This document shows positions 1 to 14,493 of a stretch of 64,000 nucleotides of DNA, piece by piece. The notes under the pieces are model-generated. The model saw nothing but the letters and a program-made list of their open reading frames with translations, was not told where the DNA came from and did not search any database. The translations under genes were made by a program, and so were the position numbers. Each line of letters opens with the position of its first letter. The first letter of the stretch is position 1. Source of the DNA: a virus; IMG/VR virus record IMGVR_UViG_3300046787_000675, positions 32,001 to 96,000 of that record; one strand, 5' to 3'.

Positions 1-719
1 CCTCCCCAATTTCCTATTTGAAACTGCTCACTCAAGAACGGCCAAAGGGATTTAAGAGAAGGGACTTTACTAAAGGGCAACTTACCTATGGTGATCTTAT
101 CACCTAACAAAAAGCCGAACCCAGCAGACTTGTAAATGTCTGCGAAATTGTTCTCCCCATCACGAGAGAATACAATTTCTCCTTTCGGGGAGAGGCCAAT
201 TGCTGTTCCTTTGAACTTGTGGAGTTTGTCTCTCCGATAGAGAGTACCCTCGGTATATTCCTTACCGACTCTCTCCACTAGGGAGAGTAAAATCTCGGTC
301 GATGGAACGACCCCGCGTTCGGGGCGAGCCCATCCAAAGATGGAAAGACCCTCTACGTTATCGGCTGCTGACGCGCCGTTCGCGTCTATCTGACTAACTT
401 CGCGAACGAAGTTAGCAAATTGCGGGTCGTCCGCCGCAGCGGGGTTTAAAACCAGCCACGTACTCAATATAGAGTCCGCATCGATCGAGCTAACCCGCAT
501 TTCCTCAATGTCCGGGAGGAATTGTCTCAGCCCAAGCCTCAGGGCATTCAACACCTGCAAGCAGGTTGCCGACAGAGGGAATCGTTCCCCTTCGCCATGA
601 TGGTCGAAGGAGAAACTATTTGTCTCTGGTTTCGCGGCATAGCCTCGGTAGGCACCATCAATGTATATGGTGTTGTTTTCCATTTCATTTACGGGATCAG
701 TTAGTAGTTGGATATTCAT
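1..719 (-). CDS. DHH-superfamily phosphoesterase-like protein, partial (runs off left edge; not in ORF track)
   Basis: ATG at 719 behind AAGGAG. My translation: MNIQLLTDPVNEMENNTIYIDG...SFDHHGEGERFPLSATCLQV...SSIDADSILS...QIDANG...GNWG. It has DHH and DxD motifs plus a WG(G)-like end. Confidence 0.55.
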   Translation of the reverse strand, partial: MNIQLLTDPVNEMENNTIYIDGAYRGYAAKPETNSFSFDHHGEGERFPLSATCLQVLNALRLGLRQFLPDIEEMRVSSIDADSILSTWLVLNPAAADDPQFANFVREVSQIDANGASAADNVEGLSIFGWARPERGVVPSTEILLSLVERVGKEYTEGTLYRRDKLHKFKGTAIGLSPKGEIVFSRDGENNFADIYKSAGFGFLLGDKITIGKLPFSKVPSLKSLWPFLSEQFQIGNWG

Positions 720-798
720 AATTTTCTCCTTATAAGACGGGCTATGACTGCCCTTATTTTTTCAAAACAACCCGCCTTGCATACACAAGCCAGAGTTT
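720..798 (-). promoter_or_regulatory. Conserved structured 5' leader and RBS downstream of ribozyme copy 1
   Basis: Near-copy of 1697-1773. Hairpins CUUGU-GUAU-GCAAG and GGGC-N7-GCCC, followed by AAGGAGAAAAUUAUG. Confidence 0.7.
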
Positions 799-861
799 AT
801 TACCCCCTGTAGTACAGGGACGCACTAAGCTTAAAATCTATTTATAGTCGCTTAGTCGACT
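799..861 (-). ncRNA. Pistol self-cleaving ribozyme, copy 1
   Basis: AGUCG-ACUAAG-CGACU-AUAAAUAG-AUU-UUAAG-CUUAGU-GCG-UCCCUGU-ACU-ACAGGGG-G^U-AAU. Shows P1, 6-bp pseudoknot, AAA linker, AAG, GCG, U.G-closed P3, GU site and P2. Predicted cut between 803 and 802. Confidence 0.9.
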
Positions 862-1307
862 TCCTCCTCATCCTCATCCAGAGCAGGGGCATTCTCCCAC
901 CACTCGTAGATCAACGATCTTAAATCCGACAGTCTGTCGGACTGTTCTCGTTGGAGATGAAGACGAGGATCTTCCTCGTCTAGGATCGGGAGACCTACAC
1001 GACTTTTTAAATCGTCAGGTAATTCTTCAAATCCTAGGTAGTTGCAATAGCTTACAGTCAGGACATCCTTTACATCCTGCTCTGTTACTTCCCCAACTAC
1101 GGGGAAGGTTTTAAATATATCTTTCGGGATGTCGAGGAATACCCCCGAAAGAGTTAAGTTGTTACTTACAGCCACTTCTTGGGAGGAACATGGCGGTCTT
1201 GTAGTTATTACAGGAGCGACGAGATAGGTCTCGTCGTTATCCCGTACAGCGCAAAGGAGGGCTTCGCGCCATTTAACTACCTTCAATCGAGGAGTTCCCA
1301 TAACCAT
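852..1307 (-). CDS. Hypothetical protein with acidic C-tail; last codons overlap ribozyme P1
   Basis: ORF track; GAGG RBS near the start. Confidence 0.6.
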   Translation of the reverse strand: MVMGTPRLKVVKWREALLCAVRDNDETYLVAPVITTRPPCSSQEVAVSNNLTLSGVFLDIPKDIFKTFPVVGEVTEQDVKDVLTVSYCNYLGFEELPDDLKSRVGLPILDEEDPRLHLQREQSDRLSDLRSLIYEWWENAPALDEDEEEVD

Positions 1308-1696
1308 TCCTCGTTGAATTCCTCAAAATCCTCTCTGAAGAATCTATTCGGAGTGGGCCCACCCCCTATGATTAGCCCTGAGGCGAGCATAAATATGCTA
1401 CCAAGTCCTTTCCCTAGAGAGCGGGAGGAGCCTCCCTCCTTCCAGAATTTCTCTGGAATATAGAGGGCTTCTTCATCGCCCTCTATATTCTCTCCTGGTA
1501 GACATGTGTAATGCTCCAGCTCATTTTGAGCATCCTCCTCTTCCCCTACGGCAGTAGGGTCATAGGTATACCCCTTTTTACGGGGTGTTTTCAATTTTAA
1601 CCCCGCAGGGGTTATAATTATAGATCCACCCTCTGGGGTGGGCAGTACGGAACCGCCCGCGGCGTAAAACTTATAATTTAGGTTTCTTTTATTCAT
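1283..1696 (-). CDS. Hypothetical protein
   Basis: ORF with strong AAGGAG RBS in the conserved leader. Confidence 0.7.
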   Translation of the reverse strand: MNKRNLNYKFYAAGGSVLPTPEGGSIIITPAGLKLKTPRKKGYTYDPTAVGEEEDAQNELEHYTCLPGENIEGDEEALYIPEKFWKEGGSSRSLGKGLGSIFMLASGLIIGGGPTPNRFFREDFEEFNEEWLWELLD

Positions 1697-1773
1697 AATT
1701 TTTCTCCTTATAAGACGGGCTTATGAAACCCTTATTTTAAAACAACTCGCCTTACCTACGTAAGCCCAAGTTT
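1697..1773 (-). promoter_or_regulatory. Conserved structured 5' leader and RBS downstream of ribozyme copy 2
   Basis: Hairpins CUUAC-GUAG-GUAAG and GGGU-N7-GCCC, covarying with 720-798. Confidence 0.7.
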
Positions 1774-1836
1774 ATTACCCCCTACAGCGTAGGGACGCAC
1801 TAGGCTTAAAATCTCTTTATAGTCGCCTAGTCGACT
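1774..1836 (-). ncRNA. Pistol self-cleaving ribozyme, copy 2
   Basis: AGUCG-ACUAGG-CGACU-AUAAAGAG-AUU-UUAAG-CCUAGU-GCG-UCCCUAC-GCU-GUAGGGG-G^U-AAU. Compensatory changes versus copy 1. Predicted cut 1778/1777. Confidence 0.9.
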
Positions 1837-1871
1837 GCTACGTTTTACGCCCAGCTCGGCGCGGACGGTTT

Positions 1872-2150
1872 TTACATCAAGTCTTCCTTAGATGCGATTC
1901 CGTCTGCTATTTTAATAGCAGTGTGTCGGAACCATCCGAGAAGACTGTCCACGTCTTGGCTATTTTGCCAGTGGTATTCCTGGCAGGTTAGCCCTCTGGC
2001 GGGACAGCCCTTAATGTAGAACCTATACCCTTTGTACAGGATATAGATTCCATCCGCCTCTACTCTAAGATCGTAGTCCTTTTCAGGTAATACATTAGAG
2101 TAGAAGGCGATTTCTTGGATTAGATCCAAGGTATCTTTGTTATTTAACAT
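1872..2150 (-). CDS. Hypothetical protein
   Basis: ORF with AAGGAG RBS. Confidence 0.7.
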   Translation of the reverse strand: MLNNKDTLDLIQEIAFYSNVLPEKDYDLRVEADGIYILYKGYRFYIKGCPARGLTCQEYHWQNSQDVDSLLGWFRHTAIKIADGIASKEDLM

Positions 2151-2184
2151 GGATACTCCTTGTAGGCTGGTCAGGCCTGTTAAA

Positions 2185-2649
2185 TTATTTTTTTAAGAGC
2201 ATAACGCGACCTACGTTAAACACTTTGACATGGTAATTTAGAGCCCTCGTTTCAGCCTCATCGGCTTCTGCTAAGTACTCCGGTGTGACCCATACTCCTT
2301 TGTTCAAAACCCTTTCAAGTTTTTGCACATAAGGTGCGGAGTCATGTCCATGTCCACCGAAAAATATTACAGCCTCGGTGTGGCTGTTGGCTTGTTGCCA
2401 TGCCGCACATCCGCTGTGGCTACGCCGTTTAACTTGAACCGGGTAAACGATACCGGTGCTCTTGTTTGCAAGAGCTACGTCCACTCCCTGATGATCCAGG
2501 TCATGAGTGATGAACGCCTCCCAGCCTCTAATCTGGTCGATTACCCTTACGAGGATTTCCTCGTTTAGATAACCAACCTCTTGAGCACGGCTGGCGTTCA
2601 CTGGGATACGTGCTTTTTTATCCCAATCATACGACTTAAAAACTTTCAT
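2185..2649 (-). CDS. Possible PD-(D/E)xK-fold nuclease-like protein
   Basis: E...DHQGVDVAL...PVQVKRR resembles the D...(Q/E)xK core; AAGGA RBS. Confidence 0.45.
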   Translation of the reverse strand: MKVFKSYDWDKKARIPVNASRAQEVGYLNEEILVRVIDQIRGWEAFITHDLDHQGVDVALANKSTGIVYPVQVKRRSHSGCAAWQQANSHTEAVIFFGGHGHDSAPYVQKLERVLNKGVWVTPEYLAEADEAETRALNYHVKVFNVGRVMLLKK

Positions 2650-2666
2650 AAAAAAATCCTTATAAT

Positions 2667-2729
2667 ATTACCCCCTACAGCGTAGGGACGCACTAAGCTT
2701 AAAATCTATTTATAGTCGCCTAGTCGACT
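2667..2729 (-). ncRNA. Pistol self-cleaving ribozyme, copy 3
   Basis: AGUCG-ACUAGG-CGACU-AUAAAUAG-AUU-UUAAG-CUUAGU-GCG-UCCCUAC-GCU-GUAGGGG-G^U-AAU. The pseudoknot has a G.U wobble that pairs only on the minus strand. Predicted cut 2671/2670. Confidence 0.9.
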
Positions 2730-2737
2730 GTTAAGAA

Positions 2738-3070
2738 CTACCAGGGGTAGCGGTAGTTCTTTGTTCCGGACCATTTAAACCTAGGGTTCCTAGGCACCCC
2801 CCGTAGGTCCATATACGGGAGGTGAAAAGATATTTGATGCCCTTTCCAACATACGTATAGTATGTCAGAAAAGGCATCTCCACCAATTACTACCTTAGGT
2901 AGATCGGGGAGATTTTTATCTCTTTTTATTTTCCATTCTTTTATGAACAGATCAAGGTATTTCTCCTTGTGTTCATAAAAGAATGTAGAGTCTTCCTTGG
3001 CTCGTATATTGGCCAAGAAAGCTCTTTTTAGTAAATAATTCAGGAATTTATCCATCCATAGATACTCCAT
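2738..3070 (-). CDS. Hypothetical phage protein (QISFH motif); true start may be 3055
   Basis: ORF track; GGAG lies 9 nt before the internal Met (MDKFL). Confidence 0.6.
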   Translation of the reverse strand: MEYLWMDKFLNYLLKRAFLANIRAKEDSTFFYEHKEKYLDLFIKEWKIKRDKNLPDLPKVVIGGDAFSDILYVCWKGHQISFHLPYMDLRGVPRNPRFKWSGTKNYRYPW

Positions 3071-3500
3071 TAAGGTTGTTACATAGTAGAGATAGCATCC
3101 GCGCTATTTCTACCGACATGTACTCACCTTGTTAAGTACACAGCTAAGGTTTTTTATGGGTCATATAGAGGATACCTGTAAAACCCCTACTAGAAAGTCT
3201 TTCGCGCCTTCTTTCGCGCCCCCTTGGGGGAACTGTGGTACACATGAGCCTGTACCAAGCCCCGGGGAAACTAGTGATCCTTCACTAGAGACTGATGTCC
3301 CGGAATTTTTCATTTGTATCCCGCCCCGCTTTGCGGTCGGCGGATAATTACTGTTTCATAATTTCGCTCCTTATTAAAGACGGGCTTATGAAACCCTACT
3401 GAATTTATATACTTCTACTCACCCACTGTAGTAAATAGAAGGGGCTACAAGTTCAGTTACTACTTGTAGCCCTATTCAAAGATAACTATGCGCTATCTCA
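3070..3500 (-). ncRNA. Candidate structured noncoding RNA or long leader
   Basis: No convincing minus-strand CDS. At least 8 hairpins, e.g. 3236-3257, 3271-3288, 3320-3344, 3412-3441, 3442-3472, 3480-3498. Confidence 0.45.
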
Positions 3501-3525
3501 TTATATTATGACCGTTTTTACCTAA
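3500..3525 (-). promoter_or_regulatory. Putative promoter (-10 TATAAT at 3505-3500)
   Basis: CATAATATAAT immediately upstream of the hairpin cluster; no canonical -35. Confidence 0.35.
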
Positions 3526-3803
3526 AAATTAAGGCTATATAATCCTGTTACTTTAGGAGTATTATAGCCCCTAGTAAGCAGGTTAGAAAAAACGATAAAA
3601 CACAAAATAACTGATAGTTATCGAGTTTTTTATTTAGAGATGCAATATCGTTTTTATTGACTTCATAATTAGTTTTAATATCTGTCAACCGATAATCTAT
3701 ATCGTTTCTATGATCTATATTTAACCGAAGGTCTCTTTGGATGCCTTCAGAAACTGTCTTGATTTTATCTATATTTTTATGAAGCTTCTTTAAATTTTTT
3801 TTC

Positions 3804-4274
3804 TTATTTTTCATCGTCTACCTCTACGGCATTATACAATAGAGAAACTGTATTTTCAAACGCTGTTCGAAGAAGCGTGTCGCTTATTACGAAAGGATAT
3901 ACCACTCCTGTACGTGCTTTGCCAGCCATAACACCGTCCACAATAAAATCCAGTATATCAATAAGATGTATATCTTCCGGTATACCATCCTCTGCTGTTA
4001 AATGGTGCCTGTTTACTTTCCTATGGTTATCCCACCAGGTAGTGTTCTTAAAGCCCCCGACGAAATCTCTATGGAAACCGTCGATGTCCGAGAACTTGTC
4101 ATGATCATGGTGTTTAACCTGTTCATCAATCAGCTCTTTAAAGAAGTCAAACCCTTTACGGATATCCCCTACATGCTGCTCAGAGCTTTTTAACAGTTGT
4201 TCTTTCGTTACCTTTGTGTAATCGCAGCTTCGTGTGTCAGCTGTCTCGCTTTTGCGAATTGTTATTTTTTTCAT
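3804..4274 (-). CDS. His/Asp-rich HD-like phage protein (DUF5662-like)
   Basis: H...HHDHDK...HRKVNRHH...D motif pattern. Confidence 0.45.
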   Translation of the reverse strand: MKKITIRKSETADTRSCDYTKVTKEQLLKSSEQHVGDIRKGFDFFKELIDEQVKHHDHDKFSDIDGFHRDFVGGFKNTTWWDNHRKVNRHHLTAEDGIPEDIHLIDILDFIVDGVMAGKARTGVVYPFVISDTLLRTAFENTVSLLYNAVEVDDEK

Positions 4275-5218
4275 ATTTTACCTTTTTTGAAATATTCCCA
4301 CAATGGCTGAGGAAATTTAACATTACTTTTTATAAGCTTTGCCACTTCATCGTTGCCATTAACTAATGACTGGGCTATTATATTTTCTGCCAGCTTTTTA
4401 GAGGCTTTACAGTTTACTGTTGAATCACAAATAGGTGTATACCAGAACAGGTATGAATCTCCTAACTTTATGAAATTTATACATCTTATTACACTTTTTG
4501 GATTTTCTAAACGAACAAATGCTACACAGCCCGAATAACTACAAGATACCTTGGTATTATACTGGGCAAAAGGATTTAGCTCTTCTACTATACTTTTTGC
4601 AATATCACCTGATTTTGTTCCTATTTCCAGTTTTTGAAGCTCTGTATCTTCTTTCTTCTTAACTACTGACTCATATATTTCTTTTAAGCTCATACTTTTA
4701 TCTTTTCCTTATTCTTTAAACCATTTATGGAAACCGCATAGTTCCCAATTAACCGGTTCTATCTCTTTTGCGAATTTTATTACTCGAATCTTATTAACGG
4801 ATCTAACTATAGACTGCCAAATAGTTTCATTATCGTAGTCGTATACTACCTGCAAGGCAATACATATACCAGAGTAGAAAGATATTTCCGATGGTGCATA
4901 AGGTAGTTCTTTATCTTGCTCATTCATATCCTCGTCTGACATGCCTATTAGACTGTATTTATCATCTTCAGCCATAATCTACTCCTTTTTCTTTTTTGTC
5001 AGTATTTTCATTTTATTTCCTTTTCCTGTTGTTTAATACCATCCTGTTAGTAGCAATGGCATCCCTCGCATGTTCCAGAGTAGAGATCAGACACTTATCT
5101 TCGGGAGATAAGTCGCCGGCTTTCTGCAGCTTCTCTATTTCCTCTGTGTAGTAGTATATCTGCCTGTTCATCTGCTCCAGCTCCTTTGCATGCTGTTCGC
5201 GTGTCAGAGCATTGTTGC

Positions 5219-5638
5219 TCATTGCTTATCTTCCTTTGCTTTCAGGTTGTTTATCAGTTTAAACCACTCTGCGTCATCCCCTCTTCTCAGTCCTTGTTTA
5301 TCGATACCGTTATACATATCGTTATACAGACGGGTAAGCCCTGTAACCGGTCCGTTTAATCTCTGTACGAGTACGTATATAATTCTTACGTTGTCTGCAC
5401 GTATGGCGTCTATAAGCTCAAGCTTATTACACCATTCAGTGCCCATGTCGCGAGGGTACAGGTGCTTAGATATATCACAGTTCAGGGTCTTTGCCATAAT
5501 AGATCCTGCTATACATACATGACACTTGTCTCCTTCAACTATATGGAATGCGTCCGGGTCGAAGATATATCTACTGTCCTGCTTCACGAGCATCATATCT
5601 CTATAGGCTGTCTCCAGGAGTTCAATTAATTCTTTCAT
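5219..5638 (-). CDS. Hypothetical protein, paralog of 6416-6826
   Basis: Shared LIELLETA-RDM-LVK-D--YIFD--AFH---G-KCHVC-AG-IMAKTL. Confidence 0.75.
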   Translation of the reverse strand: MKELIELLETAYRDMMLVKQDSRYIFDPDAFHIVEGDKCHVCIAGSIMAKTLNCDISKHLYPRDMGTEWCNKLELIDAIRADNVRIIYVLVQRLNGPVTGLTRLYNDMYNGIDKQGLRRGDDAEWFKLINNLKAKEDKQ

Positions 5639-5667
5639 TTTATAAACACCTTTAGTTGTTATTACTT

Positions 5668-6267
5668 TTATACACAGTAGAGCAGCGTAGGGTTGTTTTT
5701 ATGTATTCCTACATCCTTCCACTCCGGTTTTAGGGCGGTAAAAGAGGCTAGGTTAAAAGGAGTTGTAAGTATATGGCAACCGTTCTTTGTCGGAATAGTC
5801 GTCAAGATCTTATTCTTCTCTAGAGGCTCTATCTTGGATAGAATATCTCTTAACTCTACGATATTTATATCGTACCATTCAGGGTCATCGATATCCAGTA
5901 TCCATACTTTAGATGCGTCGGGTGCGTTTACCGACCCGGACGCAGAGTCAAATAAATGATCATTCCGTAGTTGCCCGCACGAAATTCCTTTAGCCAGTTC
6001 TGTTAACATAAACATCGTAGACTTGTAGAATGACTTTTTATTAAGGTTCAGATACGCCCGACCTTTAATAGCTTTGCAGATATTTACAATGTCGTCTTTC
6101 ATCTTCCATAGCTTCTCTACACTTGTTATTGTGAAAGAGCACACCTTATGTGTACTCTGCGTCATTTCCGGATTATCTTTCCGTCGCTTTATGATTTGTA
6201 TAAAATAGTAGTCGTCTGGAGACTTAAAATCCAGGAGAGGAGCTATTCTTTCAAAATTATCTATCAT
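5668..6267 (-). CDS. Conserved phage protein with AEP/prim-pol-like motifs
   Basis: WILDIDD (DxD) and PTKNGCHIL (T-xx-G-x-H) motifs. Confidence 0.45.
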   Translation of the reverse strand: MIDNFERIAPLLDFKSPDDYYFIQIIKRRKDNPEMTQSTHKVCSFTITSVEKLWKMKDDIVNICKAIKGRAYLNLNKKSFYKSTMFMLTELAKGISCGQLRNDHLFDSASGSVNAPDASKVWILDIDDPEWYDINIVELRDILSKIEPLEKNKILTTIPTKNGCHILTTPFNLASFTALKPEWKDVGIHKNNPTLLYCV

Positions 6268-6415
6268 ACCTTATTCCTTTTTGTCTTGTTTAATTTCTTC
6301 CGGCTTTTAAGTATTTCTACATCGTAGAAAAGACTGCCGTCAGTATGTCTCTTATCCGTATGTATGTTCAGCACATAACGGGCCTTTCCAATATTCTGAT
6401 GTACGTAAAAATGTT

Positions 6416-6826
6416 TCATTTATTTAATCCTTTTAGATTGTCTATTATATGGAACCAAGCATCGTCGTCTCCGTTTTTTATATCTTGGAGGTCTATACCT
6501 GCGTACATGACTTCTAAATCAGGTATTTCCCAGTATAGCCTTCGCAAGGTATCTCGTATACTGCAGCGATTGTCGAGCCTTATCTCATCTATAAGACATA
6601 ATTTTAAATCCCATTCCCTACCCAGCTGCCAGGGATACTTTGTATCGCGTCTATAACAATGTAAAGTCTTTGCCATAATAGCACCTGCCACACATACATG
6701 ACATTTATTCCCTACTGCAGTATGAAACGCATTTACATCGAAAATGTATTTAGTATCTTTCTTCACTAGTTTCATATCGCGATGAGCTGTCTCCAAAAGC
6801 TCTATTAGCCCTTTCATAAACAACAC
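6416..6826 (-). CDS. Hypothetical protein, paralog of 5219-5638
   Basis: Clear sequence similarity over the full length. Confidence 0.75.
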   Translation of the reverse strand: MLFMKGLIELLETAHRDMKLVKKDTKYIFDVNAFHTAVGNKCHVCVAGAIMAKTLHCYRRDTKYPWQLGREWDLKLCLIDEIRLDNRCSIRDTLRRLYWEIPDLEVMYAGIDLQDIKNGDDDAWFHIIDNLKGLNK

Positions 6827-7032
6827 CTCTTATATTTCTTTCCACTGCCACATAGGCAAGGGTCGTTTCTACCGAGTTTATTAGGGGCGTAGTACTGCTC
6901 TACTCTACAGGTGAGGACTCTATTAAAGTTCTCAATTTCAGAGTTATATTGTCGCCTAGTCGCACACTTTATACATAGTTCTTCGCTTTCTATTCTAGGA
7001 GGGTAATACCCGCACTCAGCACACACTTCCAT
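6814..7032 (-). CDS. SEC-C metal-binding motif protein
   Basis: C-terminal GRNDPCLCGSGKKYKRCC; N-terminal CxxC...CxxC. Confidence 0.85.
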   Translation of the reverse strand: MEVCAECGYYPPRIESEELCIKCATRRQYNSEIENFNRVLTCRVEQYYAPNKLGRNDPCLCGSGKKYKRCCL

Positions 7033-7243
7033 AATGTTCCTTTAAATTATTTGTTTCTTCGGAAGATACATACCTGCTATTCCAATCTGTTATTACCGAC
7101 CTCTTAGTAGACCGCTTCATACTGCAGCACCATGTCATGCAAGTTATCGTCCATGTAGGTCTTTTACCTGTACGTGATGTCTTCTCCGGGTCGAAAGCAT
7201 TCGAACCGCAGAAAGGGCATTTTTTTAATTTATAGTTACACAT
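7016..7243 (-). CDS. Lar-family (restriction alleviation-like) zinc-ribbon protein
   Basis: LKKCPFCGS...I-C--WC...WNSR. Confidence 0.7.
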   Translation of the reverse strand: MCNYKLKKCPFCGSNAFDPEKTSRTGKRPTWTITCMTWCCSMKRSTKRSVITDWNSRYVSSEETNNLKEHYGSVC

Positions 7244-7384
7244 ACTTCTTCACCTATATACCATTGAAACAGTTCTGTGTGCAAAGGGTACAACAGTTAC
7301 ATAAGGTCTTATCACTGTGTATATTATCCTGATTTATTTTTTATATCAGGTTCTTTTATACCGAACCATTGTCAATCTCCTGCT

Positions 7385-7939
7385 TTATTTTTCCTTTTGT
7401 TGTTTGTTAGGTGACATATCCGCAAGTGCTTGCACACCTGTTTTAAACTCGCCGTTAATAACGACACCGGAGGGTGCCCATCCAGCACCGTAAACGAAGG
7501 CCTCAGCTTCTTTACGAGTCCAGGGGTCACAAGGCATCTGAAATAAGCCTGTCCCTCTTTTTCTTCTGGCTTGGTCACAAAAGTCCACGTTTCCCACAAG
7601 GTACTCTACGAGCTCTTCTTTTGTCGCAAAAGGAGGCGTTACAGGAGTTCCTTCCGAAACAGTTTCGTATACTTGGTACCAAGTCATTTCTTCAGGCTTC
7701 CAGTCCGGGCGGTAATACTTGACGCTAGGGGGCTCTCCTGCCCACTCGGCGTAATAGCGATATTCTGAACGGTTATCTGTTTTCTGGTCTGGATGTTCTC
7801 CACGCTCCCATTGGAGGTGCTCCGATATCCATTCAGCTATATCCTCTGTGTAGGGTCGGTCGCACAACGGTTGGTAGTTTCCGTCTTCTTTTTTAGGGTG
7901 CTCCCAATCAGGGGGCACTCGTCTGATTTCTCTTCCCAT
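7385..7939 (-). CDS. Conserved hypothetical phage protein
   Basis: MGREIRRVPPDWEHP...YQVYETVSEGTPVTPPF; AAGGA RBS. Confidence 0.7.
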   Translation of the reverse strand: MGREIRRVPPDWEHPKKEDGNYQPLCDRPYTEDIAEWISEHLQWERGEHPDQKTDNRSEYRYYAEWAGEPPSVKYYRPDWKPEEMTWYQVYETVSEGTPVTPPFATKEELVEYLVGNVDFCDQARRKRGTGLFQMPCDPWTRKEAEAFVYGAGWAPSGVVINGEFKTGVQALADMSPNKQQKEK

Positions 7940-9766
7940 GTTTTTTATTCCTTACTGTGTTGTTTTGTATTAATCCACGTCACCGGTGGTAGTAAATGAA
8001 AAATCTTCGTATCGAGGGTCATCCCACTCAACATCCGATGTCTTAATTTCCCCAGAATCTATCTGACGCTGTACTAGTTCTATTGCCTGTTCTTCCGTAT
8101 CACATTCCACTGTAACTGATCCAGTTGAACGTGTTACTTTTTCCACACTAACTATGTATTTCATTTATTTGTCCTTATTTATTTATTTATTTATTTAGTT
8201 AACCGAGCCCGTCCTGTAATAGTGTAGAGATACATCGTCTTATACGTTCCTCTCCGAAGAACGGGATTAGCTTAGTTTTCATTTCGGTTGCTGTTATTTG
8301 GTTGGTTCCACCCGAACACCCTCCCATAGCCCCTAGTGAAAGGATCTTAGTACACAACTCATCTAACGGGTCCCCAACTTCAGCGGGAACAGGAGGTACG
8401 TACTCCGCTATTATAATCCAAGGGTCTCCTGGGTTTTCTCCATGCACCCTCTCTTTGGCGTCTCGACAATCCTTGGCATTGTGTTGCCAAACAATTTTGT
8501 CGTCTAACTCTAAAGGATGACACCAGCATATTTTCTGTGCGGAGTGTATGTGGGTATCACCTAAAGGGAGCACGTGTAACCTACGTGTATAAGACTTCTC
8601 TAGACACCCGGGATCTTCAGATGTTATATCATCCATAACACTGTACAACCTTGTTGTTTCGTCTTCTCGATTAGTTTTACCAATCCCTTGCAAGGAGGGG
8701 TAGAGGACTCTTCAATGTCTTGGATGCAGACTGCTACGTCTGTATCTGTAGACGTCAGACAGTTGTAATGTTCTATTACAAAGTCCCTGACACTATCAGG
8801 GGATTTTTCCATATAGGCTTGTATTACCATTCTTTCACCTTATACCTTTTTGAGTTGTTGATGTTCTCTAAACATTTGCTATACAGATCTTGTAATAGCT
8901 CGTCTAAACAGTAGCAATCGTCTAAGGTTACCTTAGCGGATTTTATTTCCTTAGTTGGGCTATAAGCTACGAACTTTCTGAAGGCTCGTTGCAAGATAAA
9001 CACCGTTAAAGAGTGTTTGTTTTCAGTGTCTGTAATCGGAATGTTTAAAGATACAGCTCTGCTTATGTAGCTGTCGCATTCCTCTTGCAGTCCTTTAATG
9101 TTCTGATGTATCATCTTCGTCACCTAATATATCCGCATGAAGTTCTATAATCTCTTCATTGCTGAAGTTATCATAACCAGTGCAGCCCTCTCGCATGATG
9201 TCGTACAAGGAGCCTTCATCTAGGGTGTCTACATCGTGCATTGCCAGCTCGTGGCGCATTTTTTCTATTTCTTGTTCTGTAGGTTTATTCATTTTATTTT
9301 TTCCACTTAGTTTAGATTAATTTATTACCCGTCATGAACGCATTCTTCCCATGTTGTCATATTCTATTCCTTATATTAACCATAGCATTGAACAACCGCT
9401 TTCGCGGGCTAATTCTATTAGTTTTGTTATTTCTGGGTGTGGTTTTACTGGAGGTATCTCCTGTATATCTTGGAGGTCAAGGATATAATCACCATCATCG
9501 CAGCTTTTATATTTGTAGTTACCTTCCAGAGCATCTTTTGTATTGGCAGACACTTTTATCATGAAGACCTTAACAGTGTTTATAGCACTGTCTTCTCTTA
9601 TAGACAGTTCATCTATTACCTCATCGTAATAGAGATGACCTTTTTTATAAGGATATTCAAGTACCTGGAGTTCTCTTCACGATAACAGCTCAGGAGTACC
9701 CACTGGATAACTGCTACTACTGTTAAACCACATATTATTGTTATTAACATTGTTATTTCCTTATGT

Positions 9767-12900: not shown

Positions 12901-14493
12901 TTAATTGTTATTAACAATGCATGCTCGCATTTCTGCGAACAAGGGCTGATCTGCCAACGCACGTAGGAAAATCCCACGCGCTCCATTTATATCTCGGCAC
13001 ATACTCTGTCCGAGACTCTTGATGGTCTTACGACCACCTAGATTTTGGATAACTTCTCCTGTCCAACTAGCGGTTTTACTTGTGTATGCTTCGCATTGTC
13101 TTATTATTATTTTTCCTGCCTCGTTAGCTTTACTTAAAAGCTTTTGAGAGAACTTGTAGTGGGATAAGGTAAGCATTTGACGTACTGACTTTTTGCGTAG
13201 CTTACGAGCAGCTTTACAAACCATATTACTTACTTCGAAAGGAGGTAGGATTATAACATCAAAGTTATTAACAAGCATAGCTACAGCTTTGTTGTGTAGT
13301 TCGGCTATTAAGTCTTTGATTTTCCAACGCATCCTATCTGCAGCTTTCTTAAGCCTATATCGTTGCTTAGCTGTACATTTAGTTTGTCGACTTATCAAGT
13401 CGTCTAAATAAATACACAATCTTGTTATTCTGCTCATAGCGCCTGAACCTATTTTAAAAACACCTGCAGGAGAGTAGCCTGTTAAGAATGTTCGTACACC
13501 TGGATCAAGAGCTACAATCCTACCTTGGTTTTCGGCAGGTACTGTAGTTACTTGTTCCGGTATACAGACAAACCATCTACCTTGTTGGTAAATAAGTCTG
13601 CTGTCCATAGGGGAATTTGGAATAGCTTCAGAATAGCGCAATACGCCTGACAATCTTTGATAAATACCTTTATCGCTTATCGCGCTCTTAGGGATGTAAC
13701 AAGAGTGTACAGGCTCTTTCTTACTTTTAAATTTAGGTACTTGGGGTACCCCTGTCTGCTTAGTAGTCATACGGCATTTAACAAGGCAAGAGTGCGCTTC
13801 TTTTACAGCTATAGACTTTATTTGATATGGTATTTCTTTCGACCATACAGGAGCGTCTTTGAAAAGAATATTTCTAAGATCCATCCAAGACACTCTTTCT
13901 GCAGGGTTTTTGTTTAACCAATCTAAAGCTAAGTTGTAGAAGAAACGGAAAGAACCTAGCCATTTCTTAAAGGCTATTTTCGTCTCTTTCAACGGATAGA
14001 TTCGTATCTTTCTCGATTTTGTTAGCGTACTTCCCAAATCGTGCGAAGCTGCTGGAGAAGTATTGTGATAATTCATTAACGTTTGTTGTGAGTTCTTCTT
14101 TGGAGCTAAAGCGGTGGTCATTGAGAACCACGATTTCTCCGCCGTTCTTCCTAACCATGGACTCAATGAGGTCAAATCCAAGTCTAACAAGTCGGTCTTT
14201 ACTGGTAACCACAAGCGTGAGCTTATCTCCCTGCATAAGTCGTTCCAGTAAGGCTTGAAGTCCTTTTCTTTTGAAGTTAAGAGCACTTCCGGTGTCTTCG
14301 ATGACTTCAGCGTTTGGGTACAGCTGTCTAAGTTGCGCGGTTTGTCGGACGAGGTCGTCCTTTTGTTCCGGCGAGTGGACTCTGCAGTAAAGGACGATAG
14401 AACTGTCTGCTTGTCCTCGAATGTACGATTTGACATCGTACAATCGCTGACCTGCTTCATTTTTGACTGTTCTAATCTTTCCTTCATCTGCAT
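12901..14493 (-). CDS. tnpB: TnpB with rearranged RuvC (pro-Fanzor/Fanzor2-like); start uncertain
   Basis: ALDPGVRTF (RuvC-I); IILPPF (Pro at the canonical Glu site); CEAYTSKT (alternative Glu); RDINGARGI (RuvC-III). Confidence 0.88.
   Translation of the reverse strand: MQMKERLEQSKMKQVSDCTMSNRTFEDKQTVLSSFTAESTRRNKRTTSSDKPRNLDSCTQTLKSSKTPEVLLTSKEKDFKPYWNDLCREISSRLWLPVKTDLLDLDLTSLSPWLGRTAEKSWFSMTTALAPKKNSQQTLMNYHNTSPAASHDLGSTLTKSRKIRIYPLKETKIAFKKWLGSFRFFYNLALDWLNKNPAERVSWMDLRNILFKDAPVWSKEIPYQIKSIAVKEAHSCLVKCRMTTKQTGVPQVPKFKSKKEPVHSCYIPKSAISDKGIYQRLSGVLRYSEAIPNSPMDSRLIYQQGRWFVCIPEQVTTVPAENQGRIVALDPGVRTFLTGYSPAGVFKIGSGAMSRITRLCIYLDDLISRQTKCTAKQRYRLKKAADRMRWKIKDLIAELHNKAVAMLVNNFDVIILPPFEVSNMVCKAARKLRKKSVRQMLTLSHYKFSQKLLSKANEAGKIIIRQCEAYTSKTASWTGEVIQNLGGRKTIKSLGQSMCRDINGARGIFLRALADQPLFAEMRACIVNNN

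Follow-up and report, generated by a model that had tools for sequence, protein, structure and literature searches.

The window analysed here comprises 64,000 nucleotides (nt), bases 32001-96000 of the IMG/VR virus record IMGVR_UViG_3300046787_000675, which has 160,705 bases and an estimated completeness of 84%. Close to its start, on the minus strand, the window carries three copies of the Pistol self-cleaving ribozyme, each followed by small accessory genes. We consider it fairly probable that these ribozymes are cis-acting processing or insulator sites in one leftward polycistronic transcript, in which they head the accessory gene blocks. The role of Pistol and of most self-cleaving ribozymes of bacteria and phages is still open, their purpose being described as undefined in a 2019 review (PMC6765202), and the locus is a clean new example of an arrangement that is known and still unexplained.

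The ribozymes were identified with cmscan against the Rfam model of the class (RF02679), whose gathering score is 34.5 bits. All three lie well above this threshold, and each of them spans model positions 1-68 of 68:

Pistol A, 2729-2666, minus strand: 67.5 bits; predicted cut between 2671 (G) and 2670 (U); pseudoknot pair 10/34 is G.U.
Pistol B, 1836-1773, minus strand: 64.5 bits; predicted cut between 1778 and 1777; pseudoknot pair 10/34 is G-C.
Pistol C, 861-798, minus strand: 69.3 bits, E 1.5e-10; predicted cut between 803 and 802; pseudoknot pair 10/34 is A-U.

Pistol ribozymes are cleaved at a GU junction between P3 and P2, and a representative of the class does so at about 10 per min or faster at physiological Mg and pH (PMC4604425). 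The cuts listed above are placed according to this rule, and the GU between P3 and P2 is found in 3 of 3 copies in the cmscan alignments. The strongly conserved letters of the consensus are also matched in all three, barring the positions that covary. The whole record of 160,705 bases contains three Pistols, all of them at this locus; a permissive Rfam search of positions 1-9000 (E up to 1) returned the same three and nothing further, and the 18 kb that lie upstream in the genome gave no other Rfam family.

The copies share 62 of 64 positions (A and B), 58 of 64 (A and C) and 56 of 64 (B and C), with exact runs of 22-36 nt in common. Six of the eight differences between B and C fall at paired positions, and pairing is retained in all three pairs concerned, which are the pseudoknot pair 10/34 and the P3 pairs 47/53 and 48/52. 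The latter two switch jointly, so that Pistol C departs from both A and B by two compensatory P3 pairs. The remaining two differences lie at position 22, in the linker between P1 and P2, and at position 49, in the P3 loop. In the pseudoknot, the loop ACUARGC pairs with GCYUAGU. The three copies look intact and active, and self-cleavage is predicted for each of them.

An earlier note on this DNA, made from the letters alone, had described two ribozyme-flanked segments bounded by near-identical repeats, 2670-1778 (893 nt) and 1777-803 (975 nt). Its segments are exact, since the predicted cuts map to 2671/2670, 1778/1777 and 803/802, and the similarity of the repeats is borne out by the comparison above. 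Active ribozymes would give both segments the ends that it had assigned to them, a 5'-OH and a 2',3'-cyclic phosphate. The leader with a ribosome-binding site that it had placed at the start of each segment is also seen in the sequence of both.

On the minus strand, the order of elements from 5' to 3' is a pair of hairpins (motif C), a short leader with an open reading frame (ORF) of three codons, about 270 nt with no convincing gene, an ORF of 110 amino acids (aa), Pistol A, cargo genes A1 and A2, Pistol B, B1 and B2, Pistol C and C1. After C1, motif C recurs together with its leader, and a 75-aa ORF and a terminator-like hairpin follow. The three same-strand Pistols are 893 and 975 nt apart, with two genes in each bracketed block. 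The features, all on the minus strand, are the following (SD, Shine-Dalgarno site):

3346..3480, minus strand: probable head of the unit, with two strong adjacent hairpins (motif C), the hairpin-2 and SD leader and the three-codon ORF.
2738..3070, minus strand: ORF of 110 aa, whose stop is 9 nt before Pistol A; no family match.
2650..2670, minus strand: leader of segment 1, 21 nt, with AAGGA before AUG; essentially unstructured on folding.
2185..2649, minus strand: cargo A1, 154 aa; the only homologue found is itself.
1872..2150, minus strand: cargo A2, 92 aa; weak homologue in contig L008 (33% over 57 aa).
1697..1777, minus strand: leader of segment 2, with 5 free nt, hairpin 1, an A-rich spacer, hairpin 2 (GGGUUUCAUAAGCCC) and UAAGGAG.
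1283..1696, minus strand: cargo B1, 137 aa; no family match.
852..1307, minus strand: cargo B2, 151 aa, which overlaps the end of B1; the only homologue found is itself.
720..802, minus strand: leader of the third product, with hairpins 1 and 2 and SD as in the leader of segment 2.
1..719, minus strand: cargo C1, 272 aa in all, extending 99 nt beyond the window start (604-1422 of L001); DHH-type phosphoesterase-like.

The ribozymes are tightly fitted between genes. The upstream stop codons lie 0-36 nt ahead of the ribozyme or within it, and the stop TAA of B2 (ORF end 852) falls inside the P1 loop of Pistol C. The distance from the cut to the SD and AUG is 21 nt for A and about 80 nt for B and C. 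Segment 1 has UAAUAUUAUAAGGA, followed by 7 nt and the AUG, while the leaders of segments 2 and 3, of about 80 nt, have two hairpins and UAAGGAG 8-9 nt ahead of AUGAAU. Leaders B and C are identical at 71 of 86 positions, and the repeat that they have in common runs from Pistol position 1 through the two hairpins to ATGAAT. Hairpin 2 with its SD occurs four times in the genome, always inside this 4-kb stretch; in viral contigs the pattern GCCCGTCTT..AAGGAG gave chance matches alone, none of them with the extended hairpin or with a Pistol. Neither a promoter nor a terminator consensus was found on the minus strand from 3500 to 1, where the promoter scan covered sigma-70-type sites, and this absence is compatible with a single transcript without proving it.

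Similar placements are found in other viruses. The virus sample consisted of 50 Pistol-bearing records, among them a seven-copy record included on purpose: 40 of them have one Pistol and 10 have at least two, including seven with two copies, one with five and one with seven. Where there are several copies, they always lie on one strand, clustered, 0.3-3 kb apart, and in ten other arrays every Pistol occupies the gap from a stop codon to the next start. A same-strand stop lies between about -10 and +30 nt from the ribozyme start for 90 of 171 Pistols, and of 90 unique leaders, 60 have an SD with a start codon within 200 nt of the cut, at a median of 40 nt. The seven Pistols of one locus (L196, G050:C1:24500-32500) are packed into 4.3 kb with one small gene between neighbours, and one of these genes encodes a homologue of the DNA polymerase beta-clamp; the five Pistols of another (L197/L198, G034) lie across the terminal repeat of a complete genome of 75.8 kb. 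The same architecture has been reported for hammerhead clusters in prophages, for which processing into single-gene or operon-length mRNAs has been proposed (PMC3088659; PMC6765202).

The boundaries of homology between Pistol loci were compared for 162 loci from phages and bacteria, de-duplicated to 118 clusters. Among 184 internal boundaries, 18 are at a Pistol, and in 16 of these 18 the homology starts 10-29 nt ahead of the conserved core, that is, at the 5' edge of the ribozyme, and continues downstream. Not one homology ends at the 3' edge in the 118 clusters, and about eight pairs run straight through. The boundaries at Pistols derive from at least nine independent groups, several of which differ in just the small gene immediately upstream. 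In closely related genomes a few junctions lie just 3' of the ribozyme: in L010 and about 16 related viral loci, the identity of about 97% on the upstream side drops to 87-93% on the downstream side, and a small indel lies 90-100 nt past the start of the Pistol core, which makes this such a junction. As judged from these alignments, the Pistol seems to be inherited with the downstream gene, as has been noted for ardA and hammerheads. We propose as a rule that in phages generally the ribozyme keeps company with its downstream gene, with homology beginning at the 5' edge of the ribozyme, and that it would be the head of a portable expression unit.

According to the processing reading, each ribozyme would fold once transcribed and then cut itself, and the products would be four RNAs, one of them with the operon head and the 110-aa gene and the others with A1 and A2, B1 and B2, and C1. 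The piece upstream of each cut would retain the upstream stop codon, and its 3' end would consist of the ribozyme body, still folded, with a terminal 2',3'-cyclic phosphate. The piece downstream, from which the upstream RNA has been removed, would begin with a defined 5'-OH leader that leads to the SD. The likely benefit would be insulation, the translation and decay of each accessory block becoming independent of the upstream RNA, as with the synthetic insulator RiboJ, with which insulated genes in E. coli reach higher transcript and protein levels (PMC6206723). The Pistol, its leader and the start codon would together constitute a portable expression head, duplicated in this genome and inherited with the downstream gene in other phages.

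Several points weigh against this interpretation. Co-transcription of the blocks, cleavage in vivo and its effect on expression are what we infer, and the promoter scan was limited to sigma-70-type sites. The relative L008, an 84-kb contig, has a homologue of C1 (51% identity) without any Pistol, and the ribozyme is thus dispensable for a C1-type gene. The 18 of 184 boundaries at Pistol gaps are in no clear excess over any intergenic gap, and the skew is in direction alone. A general 5' hairpin past the Pistol cut, considered as a stabiliser, had to be rejected: the 90 unique leaders have a folding z of -0.40, against -0.42 for coding controls (p 0.73). The pair of hairpins in leaders B and C is accordingly a local feature.

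Other explanations start from the same cleavage and arrive at different fates for the products. Cleavage could instead lower expression, the 5'-OH ends leading the messages into an RNase J1-type decay by which possibly toxic accessory proteins would be kept low. RNase J is common in Bacillota, to which most of the Pistol-bearing genomes sampled belong. The precedent is the glmS ribozyme, which in B. subtilis leaves a 5'-OH product that RNase J1 degrades (PMC11780869). We regard this as improbable: the strong SD sites on every block are hard to square with the constitutive destruction of the phage's own messages, and the DNA polymerase, at just 24% identity to the closest one of a cultured phage, does not point to a host of this kind. 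In addition, 5' stem-loops hinder 5' exonucleases, and leaders B and C have a hairpin 5 nt from the new 5' end, where such hindrance is expected. The glmS case bears as well on the suggestion of the earlier note that the two segments are long-lived or circular mRNAs, because it makes protection by a 5'-OH dependent on the host. To form circles, the doubly cut segments would be joined end to end by an RtcB-type ligase of the host or by the reverse reaction of the ribozyme, giving exonuclease-resistant, translatable mRNAs. Both segments would have the ends that RtcB uses, and with near-identical copies the 5' UAAUA left by one cut could base-pair to the P2 strand in the ribozyme that follows, rebuilding a nicked Pistol fold. 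This P2, however, consists of three A-U pairs and a G.A mismatch, and no further end complementarity stands out; when the duplex energy of the 5' 60 nt with the 3' 90 nt was compared with that of shuffles, segment 2 was not beyond them (fraction 0.77) and segment 1 was marginal (0.04). RtcB is encoded in 19 of 40 Pistol-bearing bacterial genomes and was not seen in the other 21, isolate genomes included, while the phage record, 84% complete, yielded no RtcB, Rnl1, Rnl2-type ligase or PNK-like kinase. Among the 50 Pistol virus records RtcB is found in one, which has a single Pistol, and in none of the array bearers, including complete genomes with two and five Pistols. For hammerhead clusters, Perreault et al. 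2011 considered that circles or spliced RNAs might arise, sought them and detected none (PMC3088659). The circular mRNA idea is an old one that is unsupported at this locus, with no ligase in the phage record, end pairing through a P2 of 3 bp and a 5'-OH protection that depends on the host, and we hold it to be very improbable. There is just a slim outside chance that Pistol-to-Pistol segments, including the single-gene segments of the five- and seven-Pistol arrays, are re-joined in infection as circular or re-assorted mRNAs; if true, a bacterial virus would provide a natural case of circular mRNA made by ribozymes.

Two further explanations place the importance of the repeats in the DNA, or deny them a role. 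The repeated ribozyme DNA could be a homology patch at which phages, or copies within a genome, recombine, so that the blocks between Pistols are gained, lost or swapped. The exact runs of 22-36 nt shared by the copies agree with this, as do the 19-32 nt of Pistol core that are identical in unrelated phage contigs and the coincidence of Pistol edges with some homology boundaries. The composition of the cargo agrees too. A GC-rich run from about -250 to 2750 (genome 31750-34750) is the longest of the 160.7-kb record and coincides with the Pistol cargo; its GC is 0.45-0.51 against a genome mean of 0.387 (standard deviation 0.035), it contains 9 of the 25 richest 500-nt windows, and it suggests a cargo island of foreign origin, in which neither A1 nor B2 found a homologue when compared with 5.8 billion proteins. 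In L008 the C1-like gene and the weak A2-like gene are separated by four unrelated genes. Nevertheless, mosaic phages should show boundaries at gene borders in any case, and the 18 of 184 come close to what this predicts. Crossovers within the ribozyme should yield 3'-edge boundaries as often as 5'-edge ones, and 0 were seen against 16; crossovers inside ribozyme DNA do not follow from the boundary data. The three copies have drifted apart through compensatory changes instead of being homogenised, and neither the ORFs between about -1900 and 4700 nor ten larger ORFs upstream in the genome gave a match to a recombinase domain (Pfam, PHROG). For a direct comparison of cargo order no close relative with this Pistol lineage was available: in metagenome contigs a strict pattern gave none and a looser one gave two contigs with the ribozyme alone in common. 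A search for C1 in viral contigs found nothing, and L008 is the one contig of the six C1 homologues that was compared as DNA. As to the cargo swapping suggested by the earlier note, the island, the homology starts at the 5' edge and the different spacing of the C1-like and A2-like genes in L008 lend partial, indirect support to cassettes, with the ribozyme DNA itself as a candidate recombination point, and L008 has no Pistol; as an explanation of the repeats, the homology patch seems unlikely. Finally, the ribozymes could be passengers without a role for the phage, as mobile-element leftovers or neutral duplicates. The C1 gene of L008 without a Pistol would fit this, and so would the undefined function of such ribozymes in the literature. 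It appears very improbable, however, given that the conserved Pistol positions are kept in all three copies, that pairing is preserved at six of the eight B-C differences, and that the tight placement from stop to start recurs in many unrelated phages. Processing or insulation is the reading retained here.

In relation to the cargo, none of the five cargo genes matched a Pfam or PHROG family. The earlier note had suggested early host-takeover proteins, and C1, the one cargo gene that lent itself to classification, looks like a phosphoesterase of the DHH type. The C1 family has six homologues, with invariant DGA, SFDHH, DAD and GG..GGSP motifs. A sequence search of the family against solved structures gave nothing and the Foldseek signal was weak, but in a wider structural search the C1 model (mean pLDDT 85) matches DHH-family enzymes along its entire length at Z 3.5-6.0, these being PAP phosphatase, RecJ and PggH (Z 5-6) and also NrnA-like proteins and GdpP. 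With these moderate Z values, the model fits a nucleotide or short-oligonucleotide phosphoesterase. A C1 homologue in an ENA contig adjoins a gene with an mCpol domain, a neighbour that hints at cyclic-nucleotide signalling or counter-defence.

The island is flanked on one side by a long run of small genes that follows the replication module, and on the other by a glycosyltransferase and the structural region. The nearest cultured phages, as judged by the DNA polymerase (24% identity), have varied hosts; the window contains no tRNAs, and a nucleotide search of phage records gave nothing useful for host assignment. The nearest transposon-type gene is a TnpB-like ORF of 530 aa at 12901-14493 (minus strand), with Cas12f1-like TNB and OrfB_IS605 HTH domains.

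Motif C is an element of about 80 nt with adjacent strong hairpins of 11 and 12 bp, and it is found at about 3400-3476 of the window and at about 385-460 of L001, on the minus strand in both cases. The second copy follows C1, just past the window start (its unit takes up about 345-460 of L001). The two copies are direct repeats that flank the GC-rich island, each of them followed by the hairpin-2 and SD leader; they show compensatory differences, their folds have z values of -5.7 and -5.0, and the loop ACUGAA of the motif C P1 is complementary to a downstream UUCAGU. Motif C has no Rfam match, and it could be a terminator-promoter unit or a new RNA type. After the leader copy at about 3400, the place of the gene is occupied by the three-codon ORF AUG AAA CAG UAA (3346-3357, minus strand), which would be a leftover or else a very short upstream ORF. 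The stretch of about 270 nt between this ORF and the 110-aa gene (3070-3345, minus strand) contains a frame of 50 aa at most, many GC-rich hairpins and a tandem GGCGCGAAAGA, and it gave no Rfam match at E up to 1.

The locus offers a compact test case of about 3.7 kb, with three active-looking copies, two of them with a repeated leader, and defined gene pairs bracketed by ribozymes. A single construct of it could measure the effect of cleavage on stability and translation, as well as any circles.

Compared with the Pistol class as a whole (RF02679; Weinberg et al. 2015; Harris et al. 2015, PMC4604425), the copies have the same P1 hairpin, P3, GU cut junction and AUAAA linker, the 7-bp pseudoknot of the P1 loop with the P2-P3 junction and the phage context. 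They differ as a lineage-specific variant, with the P1 loop GACUARGC and a weak A-U-rich P2 that ends in G.A, and the nearest copies elsewhere have the ribozyme in common with them, but not the flanks. Ribozyme-flanked circular RNAs (retrozymes, viroid-like RNAs and RtcB-dependent expression systems; PMC7229834, PMC7761336) resemble the locus in that two like ribozymes bracket a segment with 5'-OH and 2',3'-cyclic phosphate ends, which are predicted for the Pistol segments. Those circles, however, have extensive end pairing and a known ligase, whereas the segments described here are protein-coding messages of about 0.9-1.0 kb with end pairing of 3 bp and no phage-encoded ligase. RiboJ (PMC6206723) is alike in having a self-cleaving ribozyme just ahead of the ribosome-binding site, which strips the upstream RNA and leaves a context-independent leader, with a hairpin after the ribozyme. 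It is an engineered part of the hammerhead type tested in E. coli, its likeness to the Pistol locus would be one of analogy, and a hairpin past the cut is not general among natural Pistols. The hammerhead clusters of Perreault et al. 2011 (PMC3088659) share the arrangement of several same-strand ribozymes around one or two variable genes, ardA being recurrently found just downstream of a hammerhead ribozyme; the difference is that the ribozyme there is the hammerhead, whereas here it is Pistol, with two copies fused to a repeated two-hairpin translation leader.

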